A DNA stretch of 64,000 nucleotides, from assembly GCA_003971905.1 (NCBI GenBank), contig RSEE01000102.1, forward strand, positions 124,001 to 188,000. Direction: 5' to 3'. The translations under genes were made by a program, and so were the position numbers. Position 1 is the first letter of the stretch. The number at the start of each line of letters is the position of its first letter. The notes under the pieces were generated by a model. That model made no database searches, was not told where the DNA came from, and saw only the letters and a program-made list of their open reading frames with translations. Shown here one piece after another: positions 5,502 through 54,965 of this stretch. The stretch comes from Moniliella sp. 'wahieum' (Eukaryota).

Positions 5502-6399
5502 GGGAGAGCGCGCGCAAAGAGGAGAAAAGTGGCCAGCGCAGAGAGAAGGGGAGGAAAGGCAGACGCCCCAATGGGCAGCAGAACGTGGCAGGCGGGTGCG
5601 GGCGGTGCGTGTGGATGGTGCGGATGCACACAAGCGAGGTCGGCGCGAGGCGAGGCAATCGACCGACGCAGAACGAAACGGAGGGCGCACCGACCGGGGA
5701 AGGGCAAGGAGGAGGGGCAGAAGAAGGGGAGGTGGCGGTCACCGCTCCCTACGGCTTGACTGGCCCTCCGACTACGAGCGTACTCGGACTCAGTAGGCTG
5801 TCCACACTGACCTTTCCATAAGCGTGCTGGTCACTAGTCCTCGTCAAGCTTCAAGCTTCAAGGCCCCATCGCCCTCTGGCCAGCCACGGGTGAGGCTCAC
5901 CGGTGAGGTCACCTGTCACCCGTCGCCGGGCGCTCCCCAGCAGGCTGCCTCTCATCGATCTCATCCATCATCCATCCCACCGTGCGCAGAGCCGCGCCCA
6001 CTGCCCCCGTGCCTTCCCCTAATCGCACCTCAAAATTTCGCCTCCCGGCACAGCCACAGTGTCTAGGACAGGGTGACGTCAGCAGTCCCCAGCCTCCGCG
6101 CCCCCAGCTTCAACTTGCAACTTCCATCATTCCATCTTCAAGCTGCAATAAGCTTCAATAGCCTTCATGATTCATTCCTCCTGGGCATCGTTTTTTCTGC
6201 GCCCAGCCTCTCCGCCTTCTATTTCATTGAAAGATCATCGCATCAAGCTCTGCCTAAAGACTGGCTGGGCGACGCAGTCCTATATACTAGCTCACTGACA
6301 GTCCCCGCAGCGACTATTTTATAGTCGACGGATCATACCCTGCCCGATGATGCAGATGATGGCCGAGAGATATGTCTCCATCAACTACAATACCCTTTG

Positions 6400-7400
6400 T
6401 ATGATCTCCGATGGCGAAATTCATCGCCCCATATCATTTTTTCTTTTCTATCCTTGTTAGCACACGCGGTTCTCAACTACAACTAACCCAGATTGCCCAT
6501 TCTTGTTTCCTCTGTTATTGCCCTAATACAGGTGGGAACAGTCAATATCCCCAGTCGATGATCCCCTTGATTTTTCCACAATCCACCGTTATTTTCTCCC
6601 TCTTTCTTCCGCTATTGAGTTGTTGGGTTGCGACCTCCTGTGCGCGCTCGTGAACGCGAGACACCATTTTGGGTTTCCCTCACGGTCCGTCCTTTTTTGC
6701 CCATCTTCTAGTGGTAGCACCCCTTCCCTTCCTGAAACGTGTGTGCACTTTTTGGACTCACCGTGTGTTCCAGGTTCCATACCCATTTTGACGGTGACAG
6801 TGATAAGCAATTGTATACTATAGTGATGAGGGCGGTCGGTACACAGTCAATTTAACGACTCCAAATATACACTGTGGCATATTATGAAAACAAGTCAAGA
6901 GCTGTCTCTGCGCCTGTATAGCTCCAGCCTGAGAGCTCTCGCCTAATGCTGAAGAGATGAGGCTCCAACTACGTATGAGCGCTACGGTATACGGGAAATC
7001 CCAAATAAGGGATACCAGAAAATCGCGTCTCAGACCCCCACTCTTCTTCTCCTTCATCGGCGTTTCCTCTGGTACAGGCCAGGTGGGTTACCAGAAGCAG
7101 GCTTTCTTCTTCACCGCACCCGCATCTCCCCCTATCTCTCACGTTTTCTTATTGAAAGGTCAACGGAAGATATCCCCGCACTTAACCTAAGAAAGCTATA
7201 AGAATGTGGAAAACTGCAAGCTCGCATTAGAGGGATGCTGTGTCTGTCATAGTTTAGCTGATCTCCTCATCGCTCCTATTTCCAATTTTTCTTCGTCGTG
7301 AGCGTATCCCTCTTTCCCTATTCTTCCGCTTGGCACCATCATATCCTCTGTGTTTGCTTCTTCCCCAGAAACGATTGCCACATCCCTTGGACTAGCCCCG
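6400..7400 (-). pseudogene. Decayed aminoglycoside-phosphotransferase-like (APH/choline kinase fold) gene
   Basis: Minus-strand fragments in the expected order: EIGAMR..(T)SIPL, then FTSAHRRSQPNNSI (cf. FTHGDL.P.NI), then GKIKGIIDWG*LFP (6592-6542; cf. GIIDWE.AG.FP). Stops and frameshifts throughout. Confidence 0.4.
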
Positions 7401-9472
7401 AGACTCTATAGTCTCCCTCGCCTCAGTCCCGACTGTGACACTGATGTTTGCTCCTGCTTGTGGTGCGGTAAACATACCTTGAAGCCGGATTTCCACAATT
7501 CTTTCGCTTCCAGTGCATTTTGATTTTTGACTTTGTGATATTATCAATGGCTCTGCCACAATGTCCGATACGATGACGAACATCTTCCTCATCTCTGTTG
7601 TGTATGTACTACAGTTCACCATTATCTGTAGTGGCAAAGAATCATGCAACCCTCCACTCATCCCACTGTTGACATGTTGACAGAGGAGATAGACTGTTGT
7701 GCTCATGACTGATCCAACCTAAACATAATTGTGGCTGTGGATCTCTCAGAAAATGGGGAAAGAGACGGGGAGAGCTCAAATTGATCACAGGGCGTGAATC
7801 GTTGCATGATAACAGGTTGGTTTGCATATATACGGGGGGGATCACGGGAAACCTAATACTAGCGTATAAAACTCTGTGTTGCTTGTGTGATATCCTAAAG
7901 AGCGCGTTGGTTGGGAGGGTGGTAATACACGTAACGACAGGCTCGCGGATAGGGCCTGGGCCACTGAGAAAACCCAACTCTTTATATTCACAGAAGGTCG
8001 CACACGCAGTGGAACGGAACATTCTCGATCCGCTTTTTGACACAAAACAGAGTATGTACATGTGGGTTTTGTTTAGCGTTCAGACGAACTGGCCTAACAG
8101 TCATTACGCAGATGCAACCCAGGCAAGAGAGGCAAGAATCGTTTGAATGCTCTCGGCCCGGAGGGTCACCGCCCCCCAAAAGCCTTCGCTCATGACGACC
8201 TCTCATCGGATCTGCAGAATCCTTCTCCACATTAATACTTTAACGGTGCTTTCTTATAGATCACGCCGAGTAGAAAGCTGTCGGGCCTACCGCCAGGGCT
8301 GCGAACAACGTACTGTATTGATGCTGGTTTAACTTCGGTGGTCTGCATTGTATACCTATAATAGGGCTTCGTCTCAGCCTGTCCCCGGGTAGGCGGCGAC
8401 GGTCAATTCTCATCACATCTTCTTTCCGCCGTCATTCAGTATAGGTTCCATAGTCCACATACCGTTCTTTATAGTTGACCATATGACATTCCACGGCTCC
8501 ATCGTCCACACGCAGTTCACCGTACCATGAGGCATCATTTCGGCTAACGTTCCATCGTAATATTCTCACGGTATCCATACTAACACACTGTTCCAAAGTC
8601 AGACGTTGCAAACAAGCATCACACCTTACATACTACTGAGAACACTCTCACTTTTCATCCATGTCATTGTACATACTCCTCCACATATACCGACGTTTTC
8701 AATCCTCTCGCTATTTCAGCATGGATCACGCCGACCATGGTGTCTTCTCTTCTTTTCGATGGCGTTCTGGTATACTGTTGCCGCGCTAATGCGTGATCCA
8801 TGGAATGGGGAACAGTGCACGGAAGGGCAAGCTAATATATCAGAAATGGCGTGGCCTCTCTCATAGAGGCGGTAGTCAAACTACACAGTTACATTATGGA
8901 ACGGTAAACTATATCTCGGTGCACCAGTGTGCCCATCTATATACGGCAGGTGGGGTCCCACGGGTCGCGGGGGGCACGAGAAGGGAGAGGTGGGAAGGTA
9001 GTGTATTCTCTGTACTGTCGTGATGACAGTGTACTACGTGGCCTGTATATACTCCAAAACCATATGTTCACCAGGCATCCCCGTTCAAAAGAGCGACCAA
9101 ATATTTCCGGAGATCCGTCTGAACTGCAGCACCACACCATGTCGACGAACTTTTATAGAGAGTCCGCGTAGTAAACGCATATGCGACGGCGTTTTGAGGC
9201 TATAGGGGGCATTTTCTGGGCAACCCCGGTAACCTGGGTGACCGCCGGTGGCCCGTCCACTGCGACTGGGAAACAGTCCTGCCAGTGTGCAGGCCATGGA
9301 TAAAATACAGCGACTGTTAAATATGTTACAGGCACAACAGCACTGGAATAAGTACTCAGTCTCTGGTAATCGCAATGGTAATCGATAGCTCTCTCGCTTG
9401 CATAATGTGACAACGCCAATAAAAAGGTACAACACACCTGTTCGTTTAGACGTTTACTGACCTCTTCAAAAA

Positions 9473-9585
9473 CTCTTGAACCTCTTGAACCTCTTGAACC
9501 TCTTGAACCTCTTAAAAAGCTTGAAGAGCTTGAAGCTTGAAGCTTGAACAGCTTGAACGTTGAACCTCTTGAAGCTTAAAGCTTT
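9473..9585. repeat. TTGAA-anchored tandem array (CTCTTGAAC x4 grading into AGCTTGA units)
   Basis: Read directly. Confidence 0.85.
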
Positions 9586-11909
9586 ACTACATGGGCTTAG
9601 CGCTTACTCGATTACTTTATTACTAGACTTCCCGTCGTGACAACAGCAATGTGACGCTGTGATGCGTGAATATCGTGAATATTCATGAATGCTTTTCGAC
9701 CACAGCGAAATGGGAATGTGACTTGCTGATTGGACGGACGCCGGACAGGCGAGATAGAGGGATGTCTATGATGCTTCCCCTCTTGCGTCTTTGCTTTGCA
9801 GAGATGTGTTGGGAGGGTTTGGCACAAGCATAGAATGCGCGTAATGCGTAATGCCAAATCAGGACATAAAAGTGAGACTAGTGACAGCCACATATAGCAC
9901 AGGAACGTAAGAAGGAAATGTGTTGAGATCTCAATTGAGATCTGAGATCGACTGAAATCTGAGAGCTCATCTCTGAGAGATGGGAATGAGAGAGGCGATG
10001 ATCGATGACCAGATGACCGGGACAAGGCCAAGGGTCTAAATCAAAACATTATGAGAGCTTGTGAGAGATGCGCTGACGGCTGGGCCTATGGGGAAGTGGC
10101 GAAGACGTGACGACGGACACGGTCACTATATATCATTCAATATTGATTATCCTTTGTGTGCACGGAAAGCTCATCTCGATCATCCTCGATCTGTCCAAGA
10201 CGTTTCACCGGCAACTTTTCAAAAAGTAACCAGTGCACGTTCCAGAGGTTGAATTCATCCCCCTGCCTCCGAATATATTCTCCCGTCGTCTGTTCATCCC
10301 CTCCTCTTGCCTCACGGATTCGACATCTACGACGCACTTTTCTTGTAACATGTAACATCCCATAGGCACTATGCATCAGTACTCAGTCCGCTTAGGTTTT
10401 TATAAATGTGAGAAAACGACACCGAGTACTGAATGGCGGAGACTAATACCACTACTACACCATGTCGATATCAATATCAATATATCAATGGAAATAATAA
10501 TATAGTCATTGCTTGTTGCATTACTAGTTACTAGTTACTATAGCTTACTGGACATGTACAGCCGACGCGGGCCACACTCTGCTCTCTCTCTCGGCCCAAT
10601 ATAGAATTGTTTGTTGATTACGTTGATTGGATGCATTTTGGATACAGGCACTTGATGGAGATGATGGAGATGATCGAGATTCCCGGTCATGCTCATGCAT
10701 CACCTGTTCCTGGAGTCCCCACACAGTCACTATACTTACTATACTCGTACTCAGTACTCACTAGTAGCCACTAGTCATTAGTCAAACGATCGACACATTT
10801 CATCGATTGGATCGATCATCGACGACAGAGATTTCATTCATTCCGAAGGTACATGTCACAGTCTACTGTCACAGTACTTTGAAAGAGAGTGGGGGTTACC
10901 GGTTACGTTAACGCGTTAGCGCGTTAGCGTTTAACGTTTAACCTTTAACTGAGAAGTAGCTACGCTACCAGGCTAAGTGACGAATGCACTGTGCGGGTCG
11001 AATGAAACAGTCAGAGATAGCTTCTTGCAAGCTCCGGACGCGTGACGCTAGTCGGACTTTGAATGCAATAACAGGGAGAAGAGAAGGAGGGGAACGATGC
11101 TAATCCGAAGCGCGCGAGTCGCGAAACTCTGTAACCAGTTATTAAGTTATTGCGTTTGCCAGCGGTATGGCCGATCAAGCCATCCCGCCCAGTGGTGTCA
11201 CATGCCACATGATTATATGATACTCCAAAACATACTTTTGTCTATCATATGCACCCGCAATGCACTGTGTGCCTATGTCCGCTTCTCAGGTCCCAGATCT
11301 CATCGATCTCATATCTCACTATTCCTACAGAGACATAACATGCACCATGCACATCATTATGGACGACCATCGACTACTCTATGCTCTCTCTCAGCTCTGC
11401 AATAAAAAGGTCCATTAAAATCCCCTCATCGTCTCACTGTGATCCGTCGTATACCATTTAGTGTTTTAGTATAATTAGTAAGATGGCCAATAATATAGTG
11501 ACCGAGGAACGTTGCTAGGCGACGTGGTTTGTTTGTGCTTTATATTGATTGCTTGTTCTGATGCATGAGGCCTCAGCCCTCAGCCTGAGGGCTCAGCCTG
11601 AGGGCTGAGCGCATGAGCTCTGTAACCTCAACGTCTCTCAATATTCAATAGTCAATACCCTTCAAAAAATGCTTGGCCGTATGAGAAGAAAAGAGGGTGG
11701 TGCAGCGGATCCAAAAGCAAAAAACCCAAGTCATGCCTGTGCATGGAGGGAGCGATGCAGAGCCAGCCGTATTGGTTAACGGGGGAACAGAGGTGGTGAC
11801 CACCCATTGTTTCGAGAGTTTCCGTGGTAAAATTAGTAATTCTTCTATTGATGTTAATCACCTCAGAGGGGGCACGCTGGGGTTAGGGGTTACCGGTTAC
11901 GGTATATAT

Positions 11910-12300
11910 GACAAGAACGCCAAGTACCACAGGGACGCGCTCAAGAGCCGTTTTCCCCCCTGGTTTTTGACGATGCGAGGATACTGCGGCACCAAAACAG
12001 CGGACAAGATGCTCGGGCACAGGAAGGACTTGACTACTGACTCTCAATGGAAAAGGTTCCTCGCTCGGATGTCTACCATCACGTTTATCCGTGTCCACAC
12101 GCGCTACCGCGGGTATGGGAACGGATGGCGGTCACACCAGAGGGTCTTTTCATCTCCTGGCGATTCCCTTGGTTCCTTAAGCGGGGTTGGCACTACCAAG
12201 CACATCACACGCAAGACGAACGGATCGGTTTACAGGCGTAGCGTTTCCCTGTTCCACAGCCTTAATAAAGCTCTGTCGATGATCGATGATATGAATCCAG
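11910..12300 (+). mobile_element. 3' fragment (copy A) of CRE-like non-LTR retrotransposon: RLE C-terminus plus 3' UTR
   Basis: Aligns by eye to the reverse complement of 42480-43028 once the solo LTR is removed. DKNAKY..FPPWFLTMRG..KMLGHRK..QWKRFLARMST..IRVHTRY versus DKNVKH..KMLGHWK..EWKWLLARMSTTSIRIHTRY. Confidence 0.8.
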
Positions 12301-12921
12301 TATATGTATATAGTAAACAAAGAAGAGAATATATGTTCAGAGTACCTGTTTACGGGGAGATTCTACAAGGAAGAGAGCGCAGTTGCCCGATTTGTTATTG
12401 TTTTTTTTTTATTGAGTTGTAACCCTCCTTGAGTTGGTTTCTTTTCAAATGCTAATATAGCACGTCTCAACGCTCTCGTATCCTTTGTGCCGCTCCAATC
12501 GACCATCGGCCACCGGCCATTTAAGCTGATTAATGGGGAATTACTAGCTTTATTATTGGACTGTTAAAGACTGCTAGTCTGCTACTGACTGTCTTCCCTC
12601 TCTCGATCAGCATTTTCTCTTCTATACAAACCTCAATTGCACCCGCAGGGGGCTTCCCTTCCTTTTTACGAGCTTTCAAGCACATACCAATATCAATGTG
12701 TTCATCAATCTTTTCCAGACGATGTGCCACAACAATGTATCTCAGCCATCAAAACCTAACAGATTTCCTGCGTGTTATACCTGCGTTACCACGCCAGTCC
12801 TCTCAGAGACCACCCCGTTTGGGGAGGAGTTACTAGTTACTATTAGTTATTGTGATGTACATATTATATTAGTGGAGCCAAGTAATCAACAATATATGAA
12901 ATCTCGCACACACTGTTCCTT

Positions 12922-12981
12922 CCTCGTCCATTTCATTGACAGAGCTTAAGGCTGGGACAGGGGGAACGCTACGTCTAAACC
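12922..12981 (-). mobile_element. Short 3'-UTR fragment (copy B) of the same non-LTR family
   Basis: ttgacagagcttaaggctgggacag..aacgctacgtctaaacc matches 42494-42537 ttggcagagcttaagtctgggacaa..aacgctacgcctaaacc and, inverted, 12227-12282. Confidence 0.75.
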
Positions 12982-14949
12982 TAAATATATTTTTACTGGT
13001 TCAACGGTGGAGAGGTGAGAGTATACACTGAGTACTGAGATAACACACAATTACAGGCACTATACATCATCAACTCCACAGGTTCACTGATGCCACACCC
13101 GACGCCAAGTGTGGCAAAAATGCCAAAAGTTCTCAGGGACACGCAACACAGTTCTGCATTTGCTCCCTATAATATACGACCACACTTTGGCGGCTGCTGA
13201 TGCTCTTGCTATGTACACTCGCTCTGTCCGTCGGTCTCTCACGTATCGATCAGATCTCAGATCTCTGGTCTCAACACGATGGGCCCTCTCTCACGCGCTC
13301 ATGCACTCAGTACTCATGCACCATGCACATTTTTTTGCTCATGCTCTCGAGCTCCGAACCATATCAAACGCCCTTCGCGCCGACAATTCGCTGTCACAAT
13401 AACATGCAACACCGGCATTTTGCTACTGTACTGAGCAAATGAGAGTCTCCTGCCTGAGGCTGAGCGGCTGAGCGCGCTGAGTACTGAGTACTCAGACTGA
13501 GTTCTGACCGGTGACCGGTGACCCCTGACCCGGTGACGTCAGGACTAAGTACACAGATATATATTGAGTACGAGTGCCCTGTGATTCATGATTGTGAGTT
13601 AGTCCCTGAAAGTGTAGTACAAGTGCTTAACTATTAGCGCTTTGCTGTGGCGACGGTCAAAAACCCTCATGCCGGCCTCTGGTCTCTGAAGGAGAATTCA
13701 AGACTCAGAACTCAGGGAGTCCCACTCAGGCCCTCAGGCCTCAGGGGCCTCAGGCCTTAATATTCAATCTTCAATACTTCTCATCGGGTTTAATGTGTAC
13801 GCGCCTAACGTCGAACGCCATGGCACGCGAGTGCGGCGCTCGCGCCCTCTCTCGTTGTCTTCGACGAGCCCATGTCACCTACTGAAATTAATGAAAGGAA
13901 GTATACCCAAGCTAAAAACACCCACCCCTCTCGTTTTTGTGCTTGAGAAGCGGGAGCTGCTCCTGTGGGCTTCAAGCTTGCTTCTTCAAGCTTCAAGCAC
14001 CGCCTATATCATAGGCCCCACATTTAACCGTCGCACTTGTGTCACTGCCTGCACACAAGATCAATCCATTATGTGAGGATGATCAATGAGATTCTGAGTT
14101 CTAAGACCAGCTTACATATAGGCGATGGTACTACATTTTGATGGAGCTTATTACTTGCATCGGATGACCTGTGTGATCACATGCACACAGAACACTCCTG
14201 GCCCTACTAGCTACTACACACTGCATTCATCTGAATCATCCACTCCTGCTACGTTCAATTTGAACACCCAGTCGTGCGGGGGAGTCAGCAGGACCTGCTG
14301 TTGGCGATGTATTTGGGGTCCTTTTGTGCTGGGAGTGAGCAGCAAATGCATTGATTGTTGAGGGAAGAGCCTCATTAATTGAATGTACCGAATTCTGTTT
14401 GTCCACGACCGTTGCTTGATATGCTGCGCAAAGGATACGGTTTTGTATATTCAGGCAGTAGTTTATGAGTTAGAAGAGGTATTAGATCTTAGAGGAGGAT
14501 CATGCATCATGGTTCAGGAGACATTCATATCCCCCGCATCTGATGCATGATTTGCATGGTGCCTCCTGCAGAATTGAACGAAAAGGCCAAGGCGAACGAG
14601 AGGAGTGCTTCGCTGCTTATATCCGTAAGAGGTGAGGCGCGTTAGGGGTGCAAAGCTTGTTAAGTGTGAACCATTGGCCACCAGGGTCAAAACCGGGAAC
14701 GTCGAGGAAGGGAAAGAGCGTATACATCGGAGAACAGATAGAACTGGGCAACCGAGAGGGGAGCCAGACCTTAGGGACTCCAGGCCGCAGCGAGTTTCAG
14801 GGCAAGCTTCTTCGCTCCAACAGCACGGCCGGCCGCAGTCCACTCCCACCACAATCAAGTCAGAGGGTCCGAACGATGCGGATTTACGTGCTAAGTTACG
14901 TTGGCTTCGTACGGTTCGATGGGCCCGTCGGGCATCGTGCGCGATCGGC

Positions 14950-17181
14950 TATGATATATGATGGTTATCGGACAGTGCGGCGGCAATCTGAGGGACAGAG
15001 GGTAATAGTTGGAGTGGAATACGGGGAGGAATCGATGAATGGATATTGAATCGCTGTGCTAGTGTACAAGAGGCGGGTTGGCCAAGCCCGCCGGATGAAA
15101 ATGTTGAAGCAGGAGTAGGAGTAATAGGCCAATGTCCAAGAGATGGAACCCAGAGAAGGGTCAAGGGTAAAGGAGGAATCTGGAGAGGCTTGCATAGGGA
15201 AGTGGGTGAAAGGCAAGCTCGATCGGGACAGGCAAAGAGGCTAACAAGCGGCCGCGAGTATGTCAAGGGGAAACATAACCATCGCGGATCAGAATGGACG
15301 GCTTGGAGAGGTGCGCAGCGACGCCGAAAAACGCCGGCCAGGAATCAGGCTGACCAGCATTGTTGAATGGTTGGACGTGCCACCCAGGAGGCATGCCCGC
15401 CACCATGCTCGCTCCCTCCTTGGAGGTCGTCTCGGCCCAGTGTGGCGGAGTGTACGGTGTCGCAACGGTGGATACGTGGGCGTGAGGTACGCCGGGGCCG
15501 ACACCGTAGAAGGAATGCCAAACAGCGATCCACTTGCCAGTTGGTAATATGTTAGTGCATTGGGCTTGGGCGCCACACCTGCCCCCTCCCATACGAGAAA
15601 GGAGCTACCAGCGTCTGTGGGGCGCCAAGTGGGGTGCCCATCATCGTAAAGTACCCATTCTCTTGCGAAGCAAGCACGTTGGAAGGGCATGCTTGGGTTC
15701 CATCCCCACTCGTTGCACAACGCAGGCCCAGCAGAGGGGGCACCGGCCTAACCGTTCGTGCCACCGTGCCGCTGCGGCCGGATGAGCCGGGGAAAACACA
15801 GGGTGGAGCAGTCGAAGAGGGCGGAAGGGAGTAGGCAGGGGACACCATGCGTGCTCTTCGTCCCACGGTACCGTAGACGGGGCGGTGCTGATGGTGCTAA
15901 GGGAGGCACTGTCCAATAGAGATGTTGGTGAACCGGTAGAGGGGTAGCCCTGTGGGCTGGAGGCGCTAGGTGTGGTGCGCTGAGTGCCTGTGGGTGGAAA
16001 AGATGACGCTGGAATTGGCAAAGCGGGCGGGAGGGTTGGTAGGTGGTCCACTGCCGCGGCGGAGAGATAGAGGGTAAGTGCGACCAATGGACCGGCTACG
16101 GAGGGGGCGATAGACGGTCTTGAAGTCCACGGGCCCGTGAGCAGACCGATGGATGCGGGTCGGCTTGGACGGGGCTGATCCGACGGACGCTCCTCGTCCT
16201 GGATCGCGGGAAGCAGCTACGCGGCGCACACGCTTCCCTCGCTCAGCGGTAATGGCTTGGATGCGATGGGACCAGCGGTCAAACTGGTCCGCTGGTACGT
16301 GTACCGTCATCCCCAGTCCGCGCCACAACTCCACCTCGGCACGGTGAGGGAAGCAAGCGGAATATTGCTCAACTCGGACCATGTTTTGGTCGTATAAGTG
16401 TTATCGTCCAAGTACTTGTTGGCCAGCATCAGGGACACGATGGCGGCGCGGAATTCGGAGCCAGGAGAGCAACTCAAGTGTGGTTGGGACTCCTTGAAAC
16501 GGTGGAGATAGTACAGCGCCAACAGCACAATGGAGGTAGAGAGTTGTGTGGTGCGCAGACTTATGCACAAAGCTGGTGAATTCGGCAGTGGGTGCAGACG
16601 CATTTGTCGAGACTCGCCAGCCAGCGGAGGGGAAGGAGACCTAGGCGAGCTCACCGTTCCCAATGAGGATGGCCTGCTGGGCTCGGGGGAATGTGCAGCG
16701 GAACAAGGAGAAGTGGGGGGGCATACCAGATGTAGCAGGTTAGACTCAAACCACTCCGCACGGGAGAGGAGAGCGGCATCATGGGTATGGCGTCGGCGCT
16801 TGTGAGGGTTGGGGAGTATCGGACGATGTCGGACGGAGGTAGCGACGGGGGGAGGGAGGGGGAGCGGCGCTCGTCGTGGCCGTCACTGTCGGTGCGGTGG
16901 GAAGAGCCGTGGAGGGAGCGACGACGGCGGGGGCAGCCAATGCAGGCAGCTGGGCAGCAGCCAGAGACGAATGGTGGTGCCGCGGCTTCTGCAGCTCGGG
17001 AGTGGTGGGAGCGGGAGCTGTGGTAGGGTGTGGGGGTGGGGAAGCGGGAGGAGCGAAGAGAGCGGGGGCGGGGTGAGGGTGAACGACAGCTTGCGCTTCA
17101 ACGGAGCGGCGTCCACATAGGGCGCAGCGACGGGCGACATGGGGGAGGCAAGGGCGAGAGGTGGTGGGGGGCGAAGGCCAT
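14950..17181 (-). CDS. Pho85-type (Pcl/Clg1-like) cyclin with long Pro/Ser-rich tail
   Basis: Cyclin box LRTTQLSTSIVLLALYYLHRF..GSEFRAAIVSLMLANKYLDDNTYTTKTWSELS, continuing after a frameshift as RAEVELWRGLGMTVHV. Start and stop uncertain. Confidence 0.8.
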
Positions 17182-20100
17182 GAATGATATGGACGAGGGG
17201 GTGGGGGGCGAGAAGTGGGAGTAGCAGCGGTGGTATGTGGTTGTGCAAAGAGTAGTATTTTTGGAGGGTGTCACGCGTTGGTGCGGTCTGCGTGTGTGCG
17301 AGTGACGAGTGCTAGCAGCGTTGCCAGTTAGCAGCTAGTAGCTACTAGTTGCGGGTGCTAGGGACTAGGTACCGGCCCTGGCCCATGCATCCATTAGAGT
17401 ACGGGGTCTGCGCACCCGCACTTCAAAGGAGCTGTCACGTGAAGATGAATGAGATGATTGATATGCGACGCATGATGCACGATGCGTGACGGGCGTGTGT
17501 GATGGGATGATAATACACGATGGATGATACAATGTGAGACCCAGATCGGAGAGGAACGCGAAGGCCCTACCAAGTGTGTGTGATGCCTCTGGAAAGTCGA
17601 TGTTAAATGACATGCGACACTATGTACGGTCCACGTTCCTCCCATCTTGTCCGCAGCTGTGGCACATGACCCCTGTCACACGTCTGTCACACATTGCCGC
17701 TCCCCGCTGCCCGATCACTAACGTTTAGTACGTTTAACGTTTTTAACATCAACCATTAATCATACATCATTGGTCACAAGCACACATGACATTTCGCGCC
17801 TCCCAATGGCACCGCCGGGTGGGACACAGTGGGACCTAGGGCCTGGTGGGACTGGTAGGTGGGACATGGAGCAGGTGGCAGGCAAGCCGGGATTGAATAT
17901 TGGGTGGTGCATGATGTATGACGCATACCATGCATTATGCATGACACATGGTTCAATCCTCGGGTTTCGTTTGCAAGGCGGGGACGGGGTGCACCAGGTG
18001 CAGTTGGTGCAGTTGGTTAAGCGGGCCATGGCTGCGCCATACGACGCGGTGGGATATGCGATGCCGCCACGCATCATGTTCCGAATGCACATACCATCCA
18101 TGCAGTCAATTCTTCACTGATTCACATCTCCGCAGCGAACCCAGTGCTTTTTGCAGCGTTTTTTTGTTGGCAAAATAGAGAGCAACTGGTGTGACTAGTG
18201 ACGTAATAGTACTTCCAAATACTGGCAGCACGGACGAGAACTGCAATGTTGGGCATCTCATGTACGTAGAAGACACCCTCGCCGCTTTTGAATAGATCAT
18301 TCTTCCTTCTACGTAGTCGCTTTCATGGCCACGATGCCGGTGGAAACGGAGGATTCTTGTTTTGCTGGTCCTGCGCCACCCAGGTTACCCAGCCTCGGAC
18401 CCAGGGTGCTCCTTGGCGCCCCTGTATGGGTTCACAGGCCTCGTGCCGTTACCAATCATTAACCAATTAATCACGAGTGACCGGTGACTCGCCTAGTGGC
18501 CAACACAGCCCCTCTGCCCTGCCACGCAGGTTGCATCTCTGCCTTCTCATCAATACTCCACACCTTCACCTCTTTTTCGGTCGGTCGGTCGCGTTCGCGT
18601 TTAGCGTTTACGTTCACAACTTAGTGCTTGCCAGTTACCCGAGCCTAGGTGAGCCGGTGACATGTGACACTAGTGGCGCGGACGTTGGCCTTCGATGCCC
18701 AATTAGAAATGGAAATGGAAATGGAATCAGCGAAATAGGGAGCAGTCTTCAAGCTTCACTATAGTCACTAGTCACCAACATCTAGTCACTAGTCACTATA
18801 GTCACTTAGTATTCAAGCTCAGTTCGTTGCGGCGCCAGTGTTTGCTTTGCTCGCGCTCCAGGAACTCAGTGAGAAACACCTACCACAGCCAAAGGGCCAG
18901 CGAGACTGCGAGAGAGAGAGACGTCTATTTTTAGATTCCTTCCCGAGGGTCGACGCTCCACCCGCGCTCAGCACAGCTGCAAAACCGCACCCACACCCGC
19001 CCACACTGCGAGCGTCGGTGACCAACATCCAAAGTCCAATATCCAATTCGCCCCTACCCTATCCTTTGGCCGCAGGGCCTTAGATGCGTTGGCCGTTGCC
19101 GGCAAAACGCGGTGTAGCACACTGCAACCAATATCCCCATCACAAGCCCATTATGTACGCCGGTGCATCACAGCAGGTTGCGTTCGATGCATGGGGAGGG
19201 TGTTACATGTTACCGGTTACTGGGTACATTCGCATACTGGGCCACAGGCCTCAGGCCCTCAAGCTCCAAGGATCTCAAAAGCTTCAAGCCTTCCCGGGTC
19301 ACCGACCGGGTCACCGCGGTCAGCCGCTCACCGGCTCACCTCTCAGGGTTAAGGCTTCAAGCTTCAGGGCCTCATGCACCAGGAATGATGAACGTAGGAC
19401 AGCAAGCCGCAGCAGGCCGCAGTCCCTTGGCTTGGAGCGCATGAGTTAAGCGTTAAGCACAAAAGGGATGTGCAATGCGTTTGGGAGCGCGCAACCACCT
19501 CTCCTATTCTTGTCGTATCGATCGTATCATGCATGATGCATGACGTTCAACAGTCACTAGTCAGACATCTCGGATGCCACAGACTACCCACGCTTTAGTT
19601 CTAAACGACCAAAGCCGTCCCCTGAGCCTTAGGGCCATGAGCCTGAGGCCTGAGGGCGTAACCACGCCTCCCTCAAGGGCTCGGCCTAAAGTCTCCTTCA
19701 GATCTGAGTCTCAACTCACAACGTCAACCGTTCACGTGCAACGTCAACTGCCTCACGCCGCAACGTCTCAGAGTTGGTTTTCACCTGCCCCCTGGGCAGC
19801 GATTAATAAATGGCTTCAAGCTTCACCAGTCACTGAAGAGTGAGGTGGTTGGATCGAGATCTGAGATGCTTATTCATGGTGAACCTGACGCAGCGTAGTT
19901 CTCTGGGCTTAGTCGTTCTTGGAGCTCGAGCAGTAAAGACGTTAAACGTTAAGGCTGCTTAATTTGGCTGAAGCGCGATATGGCAGGCAGGAACGTGAAC
20001 GGACAGGGAAAGAGCGTCCAGGATCCGATCACATGATCACTAGGCCACTTGTTCCCAGGTCCCATGTCACATGTCGCGTTACATGTCATAAACAATGATT

Positions 20101-22852
20101 GGATTGGGCGTCGAACGTTGAACACTATTGGTACCGAAGTTCACTTCAGCAACTCAGGTGGAAGTTGAACCTCAGCTCAGCTGAGCACGGTCAGCTGTTC
20201 CGTTTCAGGCTGAGCATCCCAGCGCCCAGCTTTATTGGGTGCCAGTGATAGTGACGCGTGACGCGGAGACGGAGCGGAAAGCGTCGGAGAAGTGTAACGC
20301 ATGACGCATGACGCGTGAAATGACCTGTGATTCCCTGGACACCGATCATCGAGATCACCGGCACCGATCATCCTAGTACTTAAATTGGCAAAAGTAGGCT
20401 TGTAGGTAGAGAGAGTAGTAGAAGCTGAATGTGTGAACGTAGCGTAATGTTCAGGTGACCGGTGACCGGTGACCGTGTAGTGCCACAAAGGACAGGAGAA
20501 AATATCTAACAGCCTCTTTCTCAATTGTCAACATGTCAACGTCTATGCACTGTGCCAGCTCTGATCTGCACGCTTTGGACCAGTGCCAGCGGATAAGAGG
20601 CACGCCAGGGGTACGATGTACCAAGAAAGACGATGTACCATGGTCGATGGCCGGTGGCCACGGCGCACCTCGGCTCGGTGCTCGGCGGCCAGTTGAACGT
20701 TGAATGGAACATTGGGCCGAGCAGGCACAGGAACGGCCGGCTTCGATTGTTAAACGTTAAACGTTAAGGGCGTTCCGCGCGTTACGCGTTAGGCCTTAGG
20801 CGGTAACGCGGGTAACATTAACACCTAAGGCCTAAGGCGTTCAATAAAGGCCAGGCGCGAATAAGGCCTAAGGGGGCGTTCGCATTGTGAAACAAGAAAA
20901 TTAATCAGCAAAAAAGTTTCGCATCATACGCGTGCCCTCGAAGCTTAGCTTGAAGCTTGACCGGTGGAGTGGCTGGTTCGTGGCTGGGCCGAAAGCAAGG
21001 TCGGCAACGCATTGCTGTGCGCGTGGGGTGCAATAGCAGCGGTGCCTACCGCAGCCCCAGTCCAAATTGGCCGAGCAAGGGGCGCAAGCAGGCGCAAGCC
21101 CTTTCCGCCAAGCACCCCGGTCCTGAGTGCCCTATAGGTTTCCCATGCGGCCACAACGTCGATACTCGGTTGCCCAAGCTCAGTGTGGCTCTCAGCAAGC
21201 GCTGAATCTTCATTGCCACCATTGTCGGTAACCGGTAGCTACTGGCATATTAGCTCGCGTTAATTTAACTCGAGTGGAACCCCTGCCGCGTGAAGTAATA
21301 GTAAAACTGCAGTACTAATTAGTTATCTATAGTAACTAGTAACGCGTAACGCGTAACGTATACCCAACCAAAGGAACAGTTGCACGCCAGAGTTCCACTG
21401 AAGTACGGAACCTACAAAGAGTCCACTGCATTGCAATGCGGTGCGTGAGCTGTGCACAGCGTGTGTAGACGCGATGAGTTTTCCGTTTCGGCCACTCGTG
21501 CAGGTGACGGACCCTGGCGGACTAATATAGAATGCCTACGTGGCGTACTGACTTGCGCGTGGTGCACACGACCCTGGTCGAGGCGCTGAGGCGCTGAGGG
21601 CCTGCGGCCTGAAGCCCTGAGACGCGCTGACGCCTGACGGGCCTGACGCCCCCTGGCGCCTCAGCCGGAGGCCTGATGGCGCTGGGCGCTGTATGATGTA
21701 GGACGAGCAGTCTAATGGTGTGCCCGCGATGAGATCGATGAGCCGCCCCACGAAGACTCATTATTCCGGTTGAAGAGATGTAAGATCTGTAAGAGTTGCG
21801 CTAGCCAGTAGCACGCGTCGAGAATATACTCGCTCCATCAGTAATAGGGTTTGGCGGGGATAGTCGATAGCATGAAACCGCCGCCACGCCGACAGGTACT
21901 GATGGCAACATGTAAAACAGAATGCCTGTCCTGGTGCCCTGGAGCTGAGCCTCAGCGCTCAGGCTGAGCTTTGACCGGTGACCGGGACAGGCCTGAGGCT
22001 CAGATGCCTGGGACTCATGCACTCATGAGTGCATGAGCTCAGGCCGGCTCAGGCGCTCAAGCCTCGGGCTGCGTTATTTATCGGTGCCAATTAAACCTGC
22101 GCGACCCGTCCAAAACACAATAAGAGCAAAACCGATCATCGATGCTCGTAGATAGCCGGATAATCGATAACCGGCCAAACCCGGTAACGCGGTAACGGCC
22201 GGTAACCGTGAATCAAGAGCCGACAACCCGCGCTCAAGCGTGCGAACGCCCCCAAACGCCCTCAAAGGCAGAACGTGCGTACCACCGCAACGTAAGGAAG
22301 AGTGTACAAGGACCAAAGAGCAGACAGTTCATGACGTTGATGTGCGTTGGGCGTACGTTGAAATTGAATATTGAACGTTGATGCATGATTTATGATGGTA
22401 CGTTGATGGTGCATTGCACATATGAGCTACAGACAGAAAATTCCTACCCTCCAAAACATTGGAAGGGATGTACCAGATGGACCCGGACTTGGGCTACCCG
22501 CGCCACTGGGCCAGTGGGCGCCACAATGTGTACTCGGATGAGTACGATGAGTGTACGGAGGTACTCAAAACTCTGAACGCAGAACATAGAACTCAGACTG
22601 ATCCTTAGATCGATCCGAACTCAGATCCAGATCCAGACTGAGTAAGTCCTGAGTGTACTTAACTGAGTACTCAACTGAGTGTGCAACGAAGTATGCGCGT
22701 TACGCGTCACGCGTCACGCGACATGCCTCGGTGCCCCGGCATCCCATGTCCATATCCACATCCCCGCGCTCCTGCTGCTCCCCGCTGCTCCAACTCGGCC
22801 AAGCTCGACAAAACCGCGCCGACCAGCAACCACGTGATAAGCCCAGTAACGG

Positions 22853-22883
22853 TGACATGTGACATGTGACATGTGACATGTGA
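22853..22883. repeat. (TGACATG)x4, example of the TNA+palindrome heptamer arrays
   Basis: Read directly. Confidence 0.95.
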
Positions 22884-24039
22884 ACTCCTCGGCCAGTAGA
22901 TATGAATCTTTGATTCGATCAACATCCGTGACGCATGTGTGATTGGGACGGATCACATGTATCGCAACCTACAATTGCATGTATTATTTGGTGCTCTGTT
23001 TGGGTTGAACGTTGACGCGTTGACGCGGTGACGTGGTGACGGTGATATACATGCTTGACGCCCGTTTGAGCCGCCTGTTCCCATTTCATCTTGGCACGCA
23101 TGGGAAAACGCGTAACGCGTAACGCACAACTGGCCGGGAAACGTAAGTGTCACAATAGGATCGATAGTCGATTGACCACGAATCCCCTGCTCAATACTCC
23201 AGAACTCTGTGTCCTGAAACTCTTCCTTGTTCATTGTTCCATGTTCCTCCTTCGTTCGTGATTAAAGTGTGACACGTGAAGAAGAGGTGAATATGAATGC
23301 GATTGCGGCGGGTGACCCGGTGACCGGTGACCTAGGTGGCACAGGCATGTTACGCGTTACGTACGTTCCTTTCATTCGCTTCGTTGTGATGCTGTGCTCC
23401 TTGGGGGCCGGAGATCTCTGAGAATCCGAGCGCCTGGGCGTCTCAGGCGTCCGCTTCAGGCTTCAAGCTTCAAGCTTCAGGCGTATCAATATCACTCGTC
23501 AGGGACGTCACCCGTCACGCGCCGACGAAATGCCGATGTGACAGCCAACTCGGCTGCGGCTATGAGAATTCACAACGATTAATTACGTGTGTGGGGCAAG
23601 AGGGGGCAAGCCAACAGCGTCTCGAATTCCGTAAGCGTCGGGCGCCCGCTGTGGGACCTTGGGCCGCCAGCTGCCCTCGGCGCCCCGGCCTTCTCCCCCA
23701 ACGTTACGCGTGACCTCACGTAACGCGTAAAGCCTAAGGCCTGAGACGGAGGCCCGAAGCTTGCTTGAAAGGGGGGATTCGGCCCTGTTCTGCCGGGCAG
23801 CCGGCCGGGCGCTTATGCCCATTTGGGCATGTAGCGAAACTAGAATGTGCACTGGGTTGTCGCCTGGTGTCGCTCCAGAAAAAAGACGCTGGGCTACCCG
23901 AAGCACCGGCCAATGGCGAGGGTTGCAGAGGGGACAGTCCCATCAGGTGCGAAACCTTTTTACGCGTTACGCGTTCAAGACGTTGTTCAAGCGTGACCCG
24001 TGACCCGTGAAGCTCGTGAAGCTTGAAGGTCTAGTAAAG

Positions 24040-37179: not shown

Positions 37180-37214
<35 letters not shown>

Positions 37215-39768: not shown

Positions 39769-39844
39769 CTCCTCTGCTCTGCCTCCCCCCCATCAAGCCC
39801 ACGCCGCCGTTGGCCCTGCCCCCGCTTGCCCCTTCCCTTCATCC

Positions 39845-40430: not shown

Positions 40431-42479
40431 CCACTGCCGAGCTGCTACGGCGTTGCTTCCCTCTTCGTCCTCTCCCTTTGCGCATGCGTACGATCCGCTG
40501 TCCTGTGCCCATGCCCATGCCCAGACCCAGACCCAGACCCACGTGTCCACCATCCCCATTCACCATGCCGGTCTGCCCCATGGCCGATCGAGCGTCGCGG
40601 GCTCCTTCTCCCTCCCTGGTCAGCCGCCGTGGCAGGCAGCCGTGCCCAGCGGCGAACCGATCGAAGAGGACGCCCAGGGTCAGGCTCGTACTTCCTCCCA
40701 CCTCTCCAGGGAAAGTTTCTCCGCGGACGAGCTGGAGGACGCCACATTGGACTGATGACAATGGACGGACGGATGGACGGATGGATGGACGGACAGACGG
40801 ACGGGATCGATGGACTTTTTGTTTGTTTGGGCCTTGTTGGCTCCGTTTGCCAGTTGCTCTTGCCGGTTGCTGCTTGGACTCCTACGCGCGCACACTTTCA
40901 TCCATGCTGTCTCTTTTAGCTCTCGGCTCTCGCGCGACGAGGGGGGGAGGTAAGCGCCACCTCGTCCGTAGCTCGCTAGCGGGTTTGACTTGGCTTGGCT
41001 TGGTAGACCTCAGCAGCCACAAGCGGTCGGAAAGGCGAGGTAAGATAGGCCAGACCAGGTGCCAAGGTATACTTACGGCTGTGCAGAGGCAGACTGCCCT
41101 GCGTATCGCACGGTCGTGCACCTGACACAACGGTGTTACCCAATGCCCCTCTCGGCTGTGGTTAATGATTATGCATCATGGGATTGCGGGCCAAGGGGAG
41201 GAGCTAAGAACACCAGTGGTACTGGGCTTAACTTCTGTCATACTGCTGTACGCCCTACGGAGAGAGAGACAGTCAGATGGGGAGGACGGGGTAAGGCCCA
41301 AGGTAGGGCAAGGTAGGGGGGAAAGCGAGTAGGACAGTGGGATCCGGGACACCGGGGAGGACTGTGCCTGACCTCAGAGGTCAGGGCCTCAGTAGGGGTC
41401 GGTTTGGGTTAGGGCGGTGAGGTGAACCGTTAAACGAGGTTAAACGTTAACGTATTATGAACACGGTGAATGTTGAATGCACATGTCACATGTCACATGC
41501 CATATTCATAGTGGGACAAGTGACGTCACTTGTGACAGAGGGGCGTGGGACAGGTGCCCGGTGCAACGTGCACCCCGCGGCGGAGCCAATAAGACAACGA
41601 TTAAACGTTAAACACAGCGCAGTTGGCTGATCCTGCCGTCGGCACTGCCCCTGTCTGCTCCTGCCTCACACGCTCACACTGTGCACTACACCCTACTCAA
41701 GCCCTCAGGCCTCACTCCGTCCTCGTACTATTCACTATAGTCACTAGTCACTAGTCATGGTCACTTGCCCCTGTCTGTGACCTTCATGGGGGAGGCAACG
41801 GCACCAAAAGAAGGAGAGAGAACAGAGAGGGATATCCACAGCGTACCCCAAACACAGCGTCACGACCTTACAAAAACCAAAACAGACTGTTGTGTATAGA
41901 GCTGCTGGAACTAACAGCTCTGGCATCAATATCAATAGACATTGCTCACGCTCATCCCATAGCGCGCAAAGCCAGCTGTAATAACCTGCTAGAACCCCAT
42001 CATCGACATCATCATTTCCATGCCACAGGTGGACGGAGGATGGGCCCTGCGCCCTGGTAGCCACCCTACGGCACTGTGATAGTAAGGATACTCAGCGCTC
42101 AGTCTGAGCGCTCAGCCTCAGCGCTCAGCAAACTGGCTAAGATGCAAGTGCTGTCAAGAAGCACTAAAATGCATAACGCGTAGTGGCCATGGTGGCTGGA
42201 GACCGATCATCGTCAGCCTTGCGGGCAGAGCCACCAGAGTGTTTAATGAGACCAAGTTAGTGAACATTGAACGTGTTGAACCCAGACTAGTAGTAAATGT
42301 AGTGAAGACCGCCTCCGCCAGCCCCCACCTCTCCCCTCTAAATCCCTACCACCGAAAACAATAGGCGGAGAATAGGGCAATCCGAGGAGGGGGTGGCGAC
42401 TAACAGCAGCTCTATGGGGCCGGACCCACACGCCCCGCCAGGCATAAGCTTCGCATCCCCTTGAGTCTAGCTCTCTTCT

Positions 42480-51624: not shown

Positions 51625-54518
51625 GCTGCGGGTGGCGGGTGGGGAGAGAGGAGAGGAGGAGCCGAGGAGCAGCAGGCGAGGACGAGGAGCCCAACGCGGG
51701 CGAGCGTGGCGGAGTGGCTAGTGCTAGTGAGGGGGGAGCAGCAGACGGGGGGAGCAGACAGCGTCGGAGCGAAGCGGCTGCGAGTGGGTGCGGGGCTTAG
51801 CCTGGGCTTCGCTTAGTGCTTAGTGCCAAGGCAAGTGCTTAACCAGGCGGGCGGTCGTGCGATGCGCCATCTGCATCTGCATCTGCAGGCTGGGCAAGCG
51901 CAGCGCAGCACAGCCCGCACGCCCAACCCCATCAGTGCATCCGCTGCGCCCAGCACTCTGCCCGCGTCCGAGCCGCCGCACCCACCGCTCGCGCCATCGC
52001 CTGCCGTCCTGTGCCGTCCCCCGTCACGCCCCCACACCCACACACGCGCCGTGCCACCCCCGGGTGGCTTGCCGCTTGGCACCCGCCGGGCGGCACCGCA
52101 GCCCTGCGCAGGACTGCGCAGCACGGCGCAGCCCCGGCGCCCGGGCAGTGTGCTTGGCACACGACCGGGGCCCCTCGGCCGTCGCCTCCACGGCGCCCAT
52201 GCATGATGCAGTGCATGATGCTTGCGCCTCGTGTGGGACAGGGGATGCTGCGGGCGCCCCATGCATGATGCCTGCGCAGAGGCAGTGTCCAGTCTTTGCG
52301 GCTGCCACCGCTGTCCGTACTGTCGTACTAGTCCGCCCAGCCTGAAGGCCCAGTGCGAGGGAGACTGAACGTTGAACGTTCAACGGCGCTGGCCTGGAGG
52401 GCTTGGCACTGCGCCGCTGGGCAGCCGACAGTGAACGTGATGCGTGACGCGTGAACGTTGAACATGTTGAACTCAACCAGTGAGATACTGAGATCCAAGA
52501 TGGAGCGGTGCATTCGTTCAGTCCCATGGAGGCTGCCTCGGACTGGCGCGGTGCGCAGCTGCGCCCCCTGCGACCCGGGCGGTGAACGTGGACCGAGGCT
52601 TCCGAGGAGCCTCCACTCTGTGGGCTTCCATCGTGCCTGAGGCCTGAGGCTTACGTTTGGGCCATAGGTAGCCACTAGTCACTGGCTAGTCACCAGTCCT
52701 GGTCTGTCTCGAGATGGCTCAGGCGCTGAGTTGAGCCTCAGCTGAGGGCTCTGCCTGCGCACTCATGCCGAGGCCGATGCTGGCCGATGCTCGATGCGGC
52801 CGATGGATGGACTGAGTAACGACTCATGCATATGCTTGCCCGACCTGACCGGCCGGATGGGTGGACTGATCGATCGGATGACCCAGGTTCGACTGCTGGC
52901 CAATAGATATCGTAGATGCCATCGAGGCCAGTCGCTCGGCCGCGGCACTGGCGCTGCGCTGCCCTGCGCTCGGTCGCGCTCGGCGGGGGGGGGGGCGTAC
53001 ACTGCTCCCCTGCCTTGCCTGCCTGCTCTGCTTCGCTCGCTCTCCATCATGCATCATGCATCACATTTCAGGCGCCAGCAGGCCAGCGTGCCTCCATCCG
53101 TTTTCTTCGGTACGTGCCTCGAACTTACTTCCCTTCGTTACGCGTTACGCGGTACCCGGTACGCTCGCAGAGCCACCTGACCTAGCATGTAGCACCCCGC
53201 CAGCAGCCACTAGCCAATAGCCATCCAATATCCACCATCGACCATTCCATATTCCATGTCGCCCCCCGTGCCAGCCGCTCGGGCAGAGGCGAGAGGGATG
53301 GAGCTTGGGAGGGGTGTTCAAGCTTCAAGCACCCTGGAGTGGCCTGAGAACCCCCAGGTGACCGGTGATCATGACCGATGGTCGCTGCAAGCTACACAAC
53401 CGCTCCACCACTCTTGTCCAAACATGATTGATTGCGACAAGTTGGCCACGTACATGTGCAGACGATCCACCCACGCAGCAGCCCCCACCGTCCGCCACCG
53501 CCACCGCCACCTCCCACCGCCCACCTCCCTATCTCCCCATCTCAGGTCCCACACCTCCCTGGGCTTTCTAACGCGCCAAGCCTTCAGCCAGCCGCACTGC
53601 ATCACACCAAGCTTGAAGCTTTATGCACGTTGCACAAAGCTGCTCGAAAAGCACATACTCCCGCTCCATGATCCACACTCCACGCTCCACGCTCCATGCT
53701 CCACACGCTCTCCCGCCACGCTCCCCCGTCACGCGCCACGCTCCCCCGTCACGCGCCACGCGCCACCACCCCCCTTGTTTGGTCGCCAGGGGTCGCCTTG
53801 GGCCCCTTGAAGCTTGAAGCTTGGAGCTTGGAGCTTCAATTTGAAGCTAGATGCAATCAATGCTTTATCGACTGGATTTGCCCGCTTTTTCCTGCCGGCC
53901 TAGTAGTACTTAGTCCATGCTGCATGCTGCATGCTACCAGCCCAAATCTTGATAAGGCCCACAATGAGTACGTACGGCTGCCGCCGCCGAGAACCATTTT
54001 GCCGCCACCGAGAATCATTTCCTAGCACGAGCCACGAGTTACTAGGCAGCCTAGCGGTAACTAACGAGTAGCCAGTCACCAGTGAGGTTACCTGACCATC
54101 ATCCACATGGCCTCGCGTATCGAGTCTGCATCTGCATACCTGGGAAGCGCAACGCGCAATGGTTAATGGGGGGTGCAGAAACGCATAACCGGTAGCCGCT
54201 AACCTTACCGGTAACCTTACCTCCCTTGCCGCTGCGGCTGTGTCACATGTCAGCGTCATCACTTGGACCACATCACGCATAGTCACGTGACTGACCCACG
54301 TGCGCCCTCTCGTGTCTGCGTCTCTGCATTAACCATTGCTGCACCTACCAGTCCCCCCAGCGCCCTCAGCTGACGACTCTTTGGAAGCTCACCCACCATC
54401 TCATTCTCTCCTTTGCTTTAGCAGCTTGAGCCCACACTTGACTTGTCGACAGACGTGTGGGCCACTCGCCTGCTGCCGCGCCACCCTAGCACGGACCGCC
54501 TACCGTACCTTGGGCCAT

Positions 54519-54965
54519 GATGGCGCCCGCCCCAGCGGACAAACCGTGGAAGCTCATTGACCGTATCATCTCCTCCCAGGTGTTCCCCGCCTGGCTTGCT
54601 CGCCCTGCCATGGGCTAGAGCAAGTGGTACATGCTCATGCAGAAGGGGTTGCTGCAGCGTGGTCTGTGGCACATTCTCGAGAACCGTCCTGCGACAGCCG
54701 ACGAGGTGGCACTCGATTATCAACTGCCCCGCCTGCCTTGCCGTGGGCATGGATGACGAGACCAGGTACATGGTACAGGTCCGATCGGGACACGTGCTGC
54801 GTGTTCCTACGCAACCTGCACCGCCAGTACGGCGACGGGCACGACCCAGCCATGGGAGAAGTGTACCTGCGGCAGTTACTAGTTATACCTAGTTACTGCA
54901 GCTCCAGCCCAAGCGCGGAGAGACGGCGCAGGAAATTTGTTGGTGCACTGAGGCCTGAGGTGCTC
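54519..54965 (+). mobile_element. Ty1/copia Gag-like relic
   Basis: *SKWYMLMQKGLLQRGLWHILE..ACLAVGMDDETRYMV..FLRNLHRQYG..RKFVGALRPE matches the copia Gag pattern W..W...M...L...GLW. Stop codon and frameshifts present. Confidence 0.5.

Follow-up and report, generated by a model that had tools for sequence, protein, structure and literature searches.

TNA-centred 7-bp palindromic marks in intergenic DNA of Moniliella sp. 'wahieum' as candidate flank-hairpin excision footprints of a putative cut-and-paste transposon

The intergenic DNA in a 64-kb stretch of the genome of Moniliella sp. 'wahieum' (contig RSEE01000102.1, positions 124,001 to 188,000; the whole stretch is hereafter called the window, and all positions are those within it) is peppered with short marks (hereafter also scars), in which two copies of a TNA triplet with the same middle base N enclose a self-complementary 4-mer (i.e., TNA-pal4-TNA). 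These marks are probably, if by no means certainly, the excision footprints of a putative cut-and-paste transposon that would duplicate a 7-bp TNA-centred target upon insertion, and whose excision would leave flank hairpins that are opened 2-3 nt off the tip (giving rise to P nucleotides). As such, they are best read as scars of a known mechanistic kind that are unusual in their density, in their near-invariant form and in their likely 7-bp TNA-centred target.

The pattern itself was directly observed, and was compared with numbers expected from simulations (i.e., 20 third-order Markov simulations for tandem runs, and 30 simulations for 10-mers). Perfect tandem runs of at least two copies numbered 107 at period 7 (3.1 expected), 80 at period 6 (14.1 expected), and 20 at period 8 (1.0 expected). 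Among the 107 period-7 runs, 75 contained TNA (0.5 expected) and 59 were rotations of an interrupted palindrome (0.2 expected), with T-N-A occupying the centre in 56 of these 59. The 10-mer TNA-pal4-TNA with the same N was found 146 times, as opposed to 2.8 times expected, next to 24 occurrences with a complementary N (2.5 expected) and 15 with any other N (3.6 expected). Control anchors with the same N around a palindromic 4-mer yielded 5 (ANT; 1.4 expected), 13 (CNG; 7.0 expected), and 8 (GNC; 6.4 expected) occurrences, while TNA anchors around palindromic linkers of another length were found 8 times for 2 nt (8.6 expected), 13 times for 3 nt (7.2 expected), 10 times for 5 nt (2.0 expected), and 6 times for 6 nt (0.6 expected). 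The pattern is real, highly specific and, as detailed below, lineage-restricted.

These counts (146 vs. 2.8) bear out the rule laid down in the original prediction, i.e., TNA plus a 4-bp palindrome with a period of 7, and the two outcomes it had named as fatal to that rule (no enrichment of palindromic linkers, or an equal enrichment of other anchors and periods) were both looked for and did not occur. Every one of its example arrays is present at its position, and the polarity flips (24), 6-bp palindromic linkers (6) and switches of core (7 neighbouring pairs) that it described are all real. Its account of the diversity needs a small correction, in that all four middle bases do occur, but 14 rather than 13 of the 16 possible palindromic cores are represented (AATT and TTAA being missing).

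The 146 matches group into 125 chains, 108 of which carry two anchors, 14 three, 2 four, and 1 five. The middle base of the triplet is G in 53 of these chains, C in 40, T in 16 and A in 16. For the 108 two-anchor events, the dinucleotide preceding the first TNA was compared with the last two bases of the core, and the dinucleotide following the second TNA with the first two bases of the core (chance agreement being 1/16 per side). Agreement was found on the left only in 43 events, on the right only in 34, on both sides in 17, and on neither in 14, so that at least one flank follows the rule in 94 of the 108 events and one flank only in 77. The elementary event adds 7 bp to a site abTNAcd, resulting in abTNA-b'a'-abTNAcd or in the mirror form abTNAcd-d'c'-TNAcd, with five of the inserted bases being directly copied and two being inverted. 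The split between left and right events (43 vs. 34) fits a symmetric process. The original prediction had envisaged a 7-bp palindrome as the unit, subsequently multiplied by slippage; this did not hold, as the event itself creates the palindrome from one flank. The corresponding 12-mer x1x2TNA-x2'x1'-x1x2TNA occurs 91 times (0.15 expected) and its mirror form 82 times (0.25 expected). When such palindromised 12-mers were sorted by their centre triplet, TNA accounted for 173 (0.4 expected) and the next classes for at most 14.

The size of the event is fixed at +7. Neither TNATNA (i.e., +3; 36 vs. 42.8 expected) nor TNA-pal4-pal4-TNA (i.e., +11; 1 vs. 0.17 expected) was enriched, and the above-mentioned linkers of 5 and 6 nt (i.e., +1 and +2 nt variants) resemble junction additions. 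Plain direct duplications of the type abTNAcd-abTNAcd, in which ab and cd are unrelated, were found 13 times (0.05 expected), and a phase test on short informative runs placed TNA centrally in 7 of 12 (3.43 expected). A form in which only the central two bases are inverted was seen 3 times (0.15 expected). Period-5 repeats holding TNA were hardly enriched (18 vs. 8.1 expected), and TNA was present in 14 of the 20 period-8 runs. Reconstruction of 64 empty sites from isolated one-sided events revealed no target preference beyond TNA.

Perfect loci (108) and loci with one mismatch (101, 10.2 of which are expected by chance) are about equally numerous, suggesting a process spread over a long time rather than a single recent burst. 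The longer chains can largely be attributed to repeated events. Some 1,500 TNA sites are present in 24 kb, and at our own estimated hit rate of approximately 3% per site and side, independent re-hits predict that about 1 chain in 10 is extended, where 17 of 125 were observed. Since such re-hits roughly give the observed chain lengths, arrays and core switching, slippage is not required, although it may add to long degenerate arrays (such as that at 24040-24123) and to repeats of units without TNA. In the seven two-core pairs, the outer-flank checks hold in 9 of 14 cases, each core tending to follow the flank on its own side, as expected if both event types struck one original site. The TTA-CGCG-TTA-GGCC-TTA chain (Table 1) has cores that are as expected of two events at a single original site cgTTAgg.

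Selection acts against the marks in coding DNA. Three of the 125 chains lie in open reading frames (ORFs) with Pfam support (10,669 bases), vs. 20.8 expected for a uniform distribution, which confirms the predicted scarcity in coding exons; all three are situated upstream of the part that matches a domain. In non-coding DNA, approximately one perfect scar is found per 280 bp. The diagnostic 12-mers were also counted in 776,298 bases from 80 metagenome contigs that encode Vps35 relatives (mostly from other fungi, with a Vps35 identity of at most 59%), and 6 were encountered there, compared to 173 in the 64-kb window. This difference indicates that the pattern belongs to this lineage and not to fungal intergenic DNA in general. 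Look-alikes of the stretch were also sought in further genomes, and none was found.

Any mechanism must account for two copies of abTNA together with an inverted ab, which calls for a hairpin-closed end beginning with ab, plus a second end still holding abTNA. A 7-bp target duplication, followed by excision with hairpins on both flanks, would be a symmetric source of both ends. From the products we therefore infer a transposon, its 7-bp duplication, the flank hairpins and the mode of joining. Specifically, insertion at abTNAcd would duplicate 7 bp, the target NN-TNA-NN being symmetric about its free middle base. Upon excision, the transposase would seal both flanking ends covalently into hairpins, which is also the behaviour of hAT, Transib/RAG and MULE enzymes (in the cited passages for hAT, Transib, RAG1 and the MULE Muta1; PMC5499845). 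Each of these hairpins would subsequently be opened by host nucleases at a distance of 2-3 nt from its tip, and opening at 3 nt would give the same product as opening at 2 nt because T pairs with A. In V(D)J recombination, hairpins are preferentially opened 2 nt off the tip.

The opened ends would carry 4-nt self-complementary overhangs (left, c d d' c'; right, b' a' a b), and the double-stranded part would extend exactly as far as TNA. If these ends were joined with their overhangs fully overlapping, and one overhang survived replication or repair, the products would be abTNA-cdd'c'-TNAcd or abTNA-b'a'ab-TNAcd, i.e., in every case 7 bp longer, identical in N at both anchors, and having a core palindrome that stems from one flank. 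Full overlap would make the net gain always equal to the duplication length, and because either overhang can become fixed, left and right types would arise in equal numbers. Insertions into the newly made TNA sites would either lengthen the chain while keeping its core, or give rise to a second core that derives from the opposite flank. Opening of the hairpins elsewhere would yield other products: plain direct duplications (cf. the 13 cases above) when opened at the tip, the rarely seen form with only the central two bases inverted when opened 1 nt off the tip, and palindromes with complementary N when opened at least 4 nt from the tip.

Two features expected of such footprints were indeed found, since the empty site retains a target duplication (as seen in the 91 and 82 12-mers and in the 13 direct 7-bp duplications), and since the bases at the junction are an inverted copy of the flank rather than of an element (94 of the 108 two-anchor events). 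The pattern is the outcome of a generative process and neither a satellite nor a single binding site, as had originally been proposed. Among the processes then suggested, hairpin-end repair at TNA-centred transposase breaks fits best, given the flank-derived inverted bases.

A number of points weigh against these marks being transposon footprints. No terminal-inverted-repeat element with a flanking 7-bp duplication was found in the 64-kb window: among 46,599 pairs of identical 7-mers located 40-8000 bp apart, the best inverted-end score was 12/14, for a pair without TNA, the best TNA pair matched one array to another, and none was a convincing element. Pfam searches with 126 ORFs of at least 75 aa in the 5.8-30.2 kb region did not reveal a match to a transposase family, the sole domain found being a cyclin domain, and no dispersed repeats other than the arrays themselves were found in the window. 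To our knowledge, no described superfamily combines a 7-bp TNA-centred duplication with flank hairpins. Moreover, 15 of the 24 palindromes with complementary N match neither flank, where the proposed mechanism predicts at least one match, and the strict +7 outcome needs a special mode of joining, as ordinary end joining should also yield +3, +11 and more varied junctions. Direct support for the 7-bp duplication is modest (the 13 direct duplications and the 7 of 12 runs in the phase test), and the scar density is very high for a region without a visible transposon. That density is also uneven, with 0 chains at the 118 TNA sites of the 6-8 kb segment and 56 chains in the 18-26 kb segment; this would suit an element that prefers certain chromatin, and other readings are compatible with it as well.

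The closest mechanistic parallels are provided by elements that form flank hairpins. The footprints that hAT elements (Ac/Ds, Tam3, Hermes) leave, as well as V(D)J coding joints with their P nucleotides, resemble the present marks in keeping the duplication and in having inverted flank bases at the junction. However, hAT elements duplicate 8 bp of target, and both hAT and V(D)J junctions vary, whereas the outcome here is almost invariant. An 8-bp hAT duplication was rejected for having the wrong period (107 runs of period 7, 75 of them with TNA, vs. 20 runs of period 8, 14 of them with TNA), and no hAT transposase or element was found in the window (Pfam over the same 126 ORFs). Transib elements duplicate 5 bp; a Transib-like NNTNA duplication was likewise rejected, since it would constitute an asymmetric target, since period-5 TNA repeats are hardly in excess, and since it would leave the direct 7-bp duplications unexplained. 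For Ac/Ds, excision footprints with flank-derived inverted bases are described in the cited passages, together with their explanation as P nucleotides via flank hairpins (PMC4561436), so that the view that no named mechanism produces such a pattern can no longer be maintained.

Other superfamilies share the target or the duplication length with the marks. P-type excision leaves transposon-end sequence and not flank-derived palindromes. Within this P superfamily (Galileo, 1360), the 7-bp duplication would fit, and Galileo is described to combine it with a target that is palindromic about a free central base, i.e., GTANTAC (PMC4168063, in part), but that consensus is centred on A-N-T instead of T-N-A, and ANT anchors show no enrichment in the window (5 vs. 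1.4 expected). Tc1/mariner footprints also consist of a kept duplication with a short palindromic filler; according to the cited passages, however, this filler comes from the two inverted transposon ends and is the same at every site (PMC4561436), whereas the filler here is copied from the local flank. A Tc1-like filler from transposon ends is contradicted by the flank rule (94 of 108) and was rejected, as was independent random trimming of two hairpin ends, given that its +3 and +11 products are not enriched.

PIF/Harbinger-type footprints, with a TNA target and a 3-bp duplication, are suggested by the anchor itself, as TNA, its middle base being free, is what Harbinger elements classically target and duplicate (PMC12477816, in part) and as the middle base is also free in the mPing duplication (PMC4561436). 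Nevertheless, a 3-bp duplication would keep a single copy of the bases beside TNA and could hence not yield abTNA-b'a'-abTNA, TNATNA, the footprint of a duplication that is simply retained, shows no excess (36 vs. 42.8 expected), and none of the offset-hairpin variants worked out on paper gives +7. Moreover, PIF, Pong and mPing are described as generally precise in their excision (cited passages of PMC4561436), and elements of this group (Tourist, mPing/Pong) thus differ from the marks in duplication length, in precision and in lacking flank-derived palindromes, which makes this explanation quite improbable. The transposases that the original prediction had put forward are consequently each right in part, i.e., PIF/Harbinger with regard to the TNA target (though not the duplication length), and hAT or Transib with regard to the hairpins (though not the 7-bp period).

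Alternatively, the 7-bp insertions might be written directly by a host process that does not involve a mobile element, such as a domesticated transposase or nuclease cutting at TNA and producing hairpin ends, or polymerase snap-back on a T-N-A loop. The lack of a visible element in 64 kb would agree with this, as would the extreme regularity of the outcome (only +7), the very high density, the steady spread of ages, and the ability of the new 7-mer x1x2-TNA-x2'x1' to fold into a 2-bp stem with a TNA loop. We nonetheless deem such a process rather improbable, because the double copy of abTNA needs a staggered duplication that insertion of a transposon already supplies, because a 2-bp stem is too weak to prime on its own while nothing would stop copying after exactly 2 nt, and because the direct 7-bp TNA-centred duplications (13 vs. 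0.05 expected) look like ordinary target duplications. Chance quasi-palindromic heptamers that were expanded by hairpin-assisted replication slippage, in the manner of a microsatellite, would explain why short tandem duplications show some excess at every period, why some repeated units are devoid of TNA (e.g., GCAACGT x2.9 at 49952), and why long degenerate arrays exist (e.g., the 12 copies at 24040-24123). Slippage, however, copies an existing unit and should leave both flanks in register, yet agreement is confined to one side in 77 of the 108 events and extends to both in 17, and 108 of the 125 chains have just two anchors. As it moreover explains neither the requirement for T and A (173 vs. 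at most 14) nor the making of the palindrome from a flank, slippage has a slim chance of being the source of the pattern. Finally, it is highly improbable that the marks are selected cis-regulatory or structural elements (i.e., sites for dimeric proteins) or an assembly artefact. The arrays are indeed intergenic and often near genes, but 14 cores in which only T and A are fixed cannot be the site of one protein, and the core is dictated by the two neighbouring bases; an artefact would not be expected to avoid coding DNA and to decay by point mutation, as the marks do.

Going further, the marks might not stem from an ordinary transposon family at all, and the responsible activity might be an undescribed cut-and-paste element in which Harbinger-like recognition of TNA and a 7-bp duplication are combined with flank hairpins like those of hAT and RAG, or else a domesticated hairpin-forming nuclease that still writes 7-bp palindromes at TNA. 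We put this forward tentatively, as a possible but unlikely reading.

The main arrays and zones are listed in Table 1. The low-GC block at the start of the table illustrates how unevenly non-coding DNA is marked; this block may be of more recent origin, may be transcribed as a unit, or may lie in closed chromatin.

Table 1. Zones, genes and arrays in the window.
Feature	Position	Strand	Remarks
TCA/AGCT, 3 anchors	5844..5862		right flank agrees with core
Low-GC (0.48) block, almost no scars	6001..9300		0 chains and 118 TNA sites in 6001-8000; no Pfam match, no long ORF
Main scar-rich, gene-poor zone	9470..28700		92 of 125 perfect chains; up to 15 per 2 kb at 18-26 kb
TTA/CTAG, 3 anchors	10521..10540		
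Core-switching cluster	13455..13540		8-bp variant; 6-bp linker TGA GCGCGC TGA at 13469; polarity flip at 13485
Cyclin-like gene	16310-16882	minus	in scar-free gap; no scars at 16-18 kb
GGTGACC x3.1 (TGA/CCGG, 3 anchors)	20454..20475		both flanks match
Two-core chain TTA-CGCG-TTA-GGCC-TTA	20782..20798		left core from left flank (cg), right core from right flank (gg)
GTGACAT x4.6 (TGA/CATG, 5 anchors)	22852..22883		longest perfect chain
Cluster	23960..24162		TTA/CGCG; non-palindromic direct 7-bp repeat CGTGACC; CTAGTAA x12 (degenerate, 24040-24123); GTAACGA/GTAACGC
ACTCAGA x2, i.e., a non-palindromic TNA-centred 7-mer duplicated directly	24794..24807		
TGA/ACGT array	24891..24920		inverted relative to 25230-25256
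TCA/ACGT, 4 anchors	25230..25256		
TCA/TCGA, 3 anchors	25382..25403		
TCA/AGCT, 3 anchors	26065..26090		degenerate copies continue to 26110
Intergenic group, 7 chains	41441..42127		includes TCA/CATG at 41486 and TCA/CTAG x3 at 41741
Intergenic group, 12 chains	52366..54958		TGA/ACGT, TGA/CGCG, TGA/GGCC, TCA/TGCA x3, TTA/CGCG and others

Some further repeats and palindromes were noted alongside these arrays. Perfect palindromes with arms of at least 8 nt number 7 (approximately 1 expected) and include one of 24 bp (arms of 12) at 22014-22037, while longer perfect palindromes at 9926-9943 and 52370-52385 are built of scar units of flipped polarity. At 49950-49985, five tandem GCAACGT/GCAACGC units are present, i.e., scar-like heptamers in which the T of TNA is replaced by G but which are nevertheless repeated, as might result from a degree of slippage or from a less strict target. 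The composite TCA-CTATAG-TCA-CTAG-TCA occurs three times (18756-18810 and 41732-41757) and may represent a small dispersed repeat, or may have arisen repeatedly at sites that resemble each other. A telomere-like heptamer (GGGGTTA x2) is located at 11879-11892 inside the gene-poor zone. Longer tandem repeats at 33569-33692 (42 bp x3) and 32149-32296 (73 bp x2) are GC-rich, probably coding, and unrelated to the TNA lattice.

The exons in the window are long and open, with a G+C content of approximately 60-66%, and their products include Vps35, a protein kinase, CorA, an APP1 phosphatase, endosulfine, TPR proteins and RRM proteins. The gene-poor zone from 5.8 to 30.2 kb has a G+C content of 47-55%, and its sole family match is the cyclin-like gene of Table 1 (with a Pho80-like domain). 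Rfam and tRNA scans yielded no matches. The Vps35 fragment is approximately 60% identical to the proteins of Moesziomyces, Tilletiaria, Ustilago and Violaceomyces, and 88% and 75% identical to those of two further assemblies. Judged by this similarity, the organism is placed in the Ustilaginomycotina (i.e., the smut relatives), and is neither Ustilago maydis nor Pseudozyma flocculosa.

A literature search for the TNA-palindrome rule returned one relevant match, i.e., a remark on 10-bp repeats of U. maydis that were suggested to be transposable element footprints (PMC4081816, citing Laurie 2012 and Schirawski 2010). These repeats occur in the same subphylum, are intergenic and numerous, have the same proposed origin, and match the marks in size (TNA + 4 + TNA = 10 bp). 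The cited passages mention neither a flank rule nor a 7-bp event; judging by the 10-bp size, both are probably the same phenomenon. In addition, one relative is reported, in the cited passage, to have an unusually high share of tandem repeats (PMC4824034).

If the footprint reading is true, one very regular repair outcome would have given rise to thousands of small intergenic palindromes in a host whose genome is compact and otherwise looks almost transposon-free. The signature x1x2TNA-x2'x1'-x1x2TNA would then be countable in any genome, and could date and map past cut-and-paste activity even after loss of the element. It would also point to a type of element or nuclease whose target, duplication length and chemistry are not reported to occur together, and the nearly invariant junction would offer a natural read-out of hairpin-end opening and joining in a basidiomycete. 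The same process may account for the 10-bp repeats of U. maydis and for the high tandem-repeat content of some relatives (PMC4824034, in part). The many new palindromic sites upstream of genes would furthermore constitute raw material for regulatory change, and should an undescribed element or domesticated nuclease indeed be at work, it would have a major and ongoing part in supplying this lineage with new non-coding and promoter DNA.

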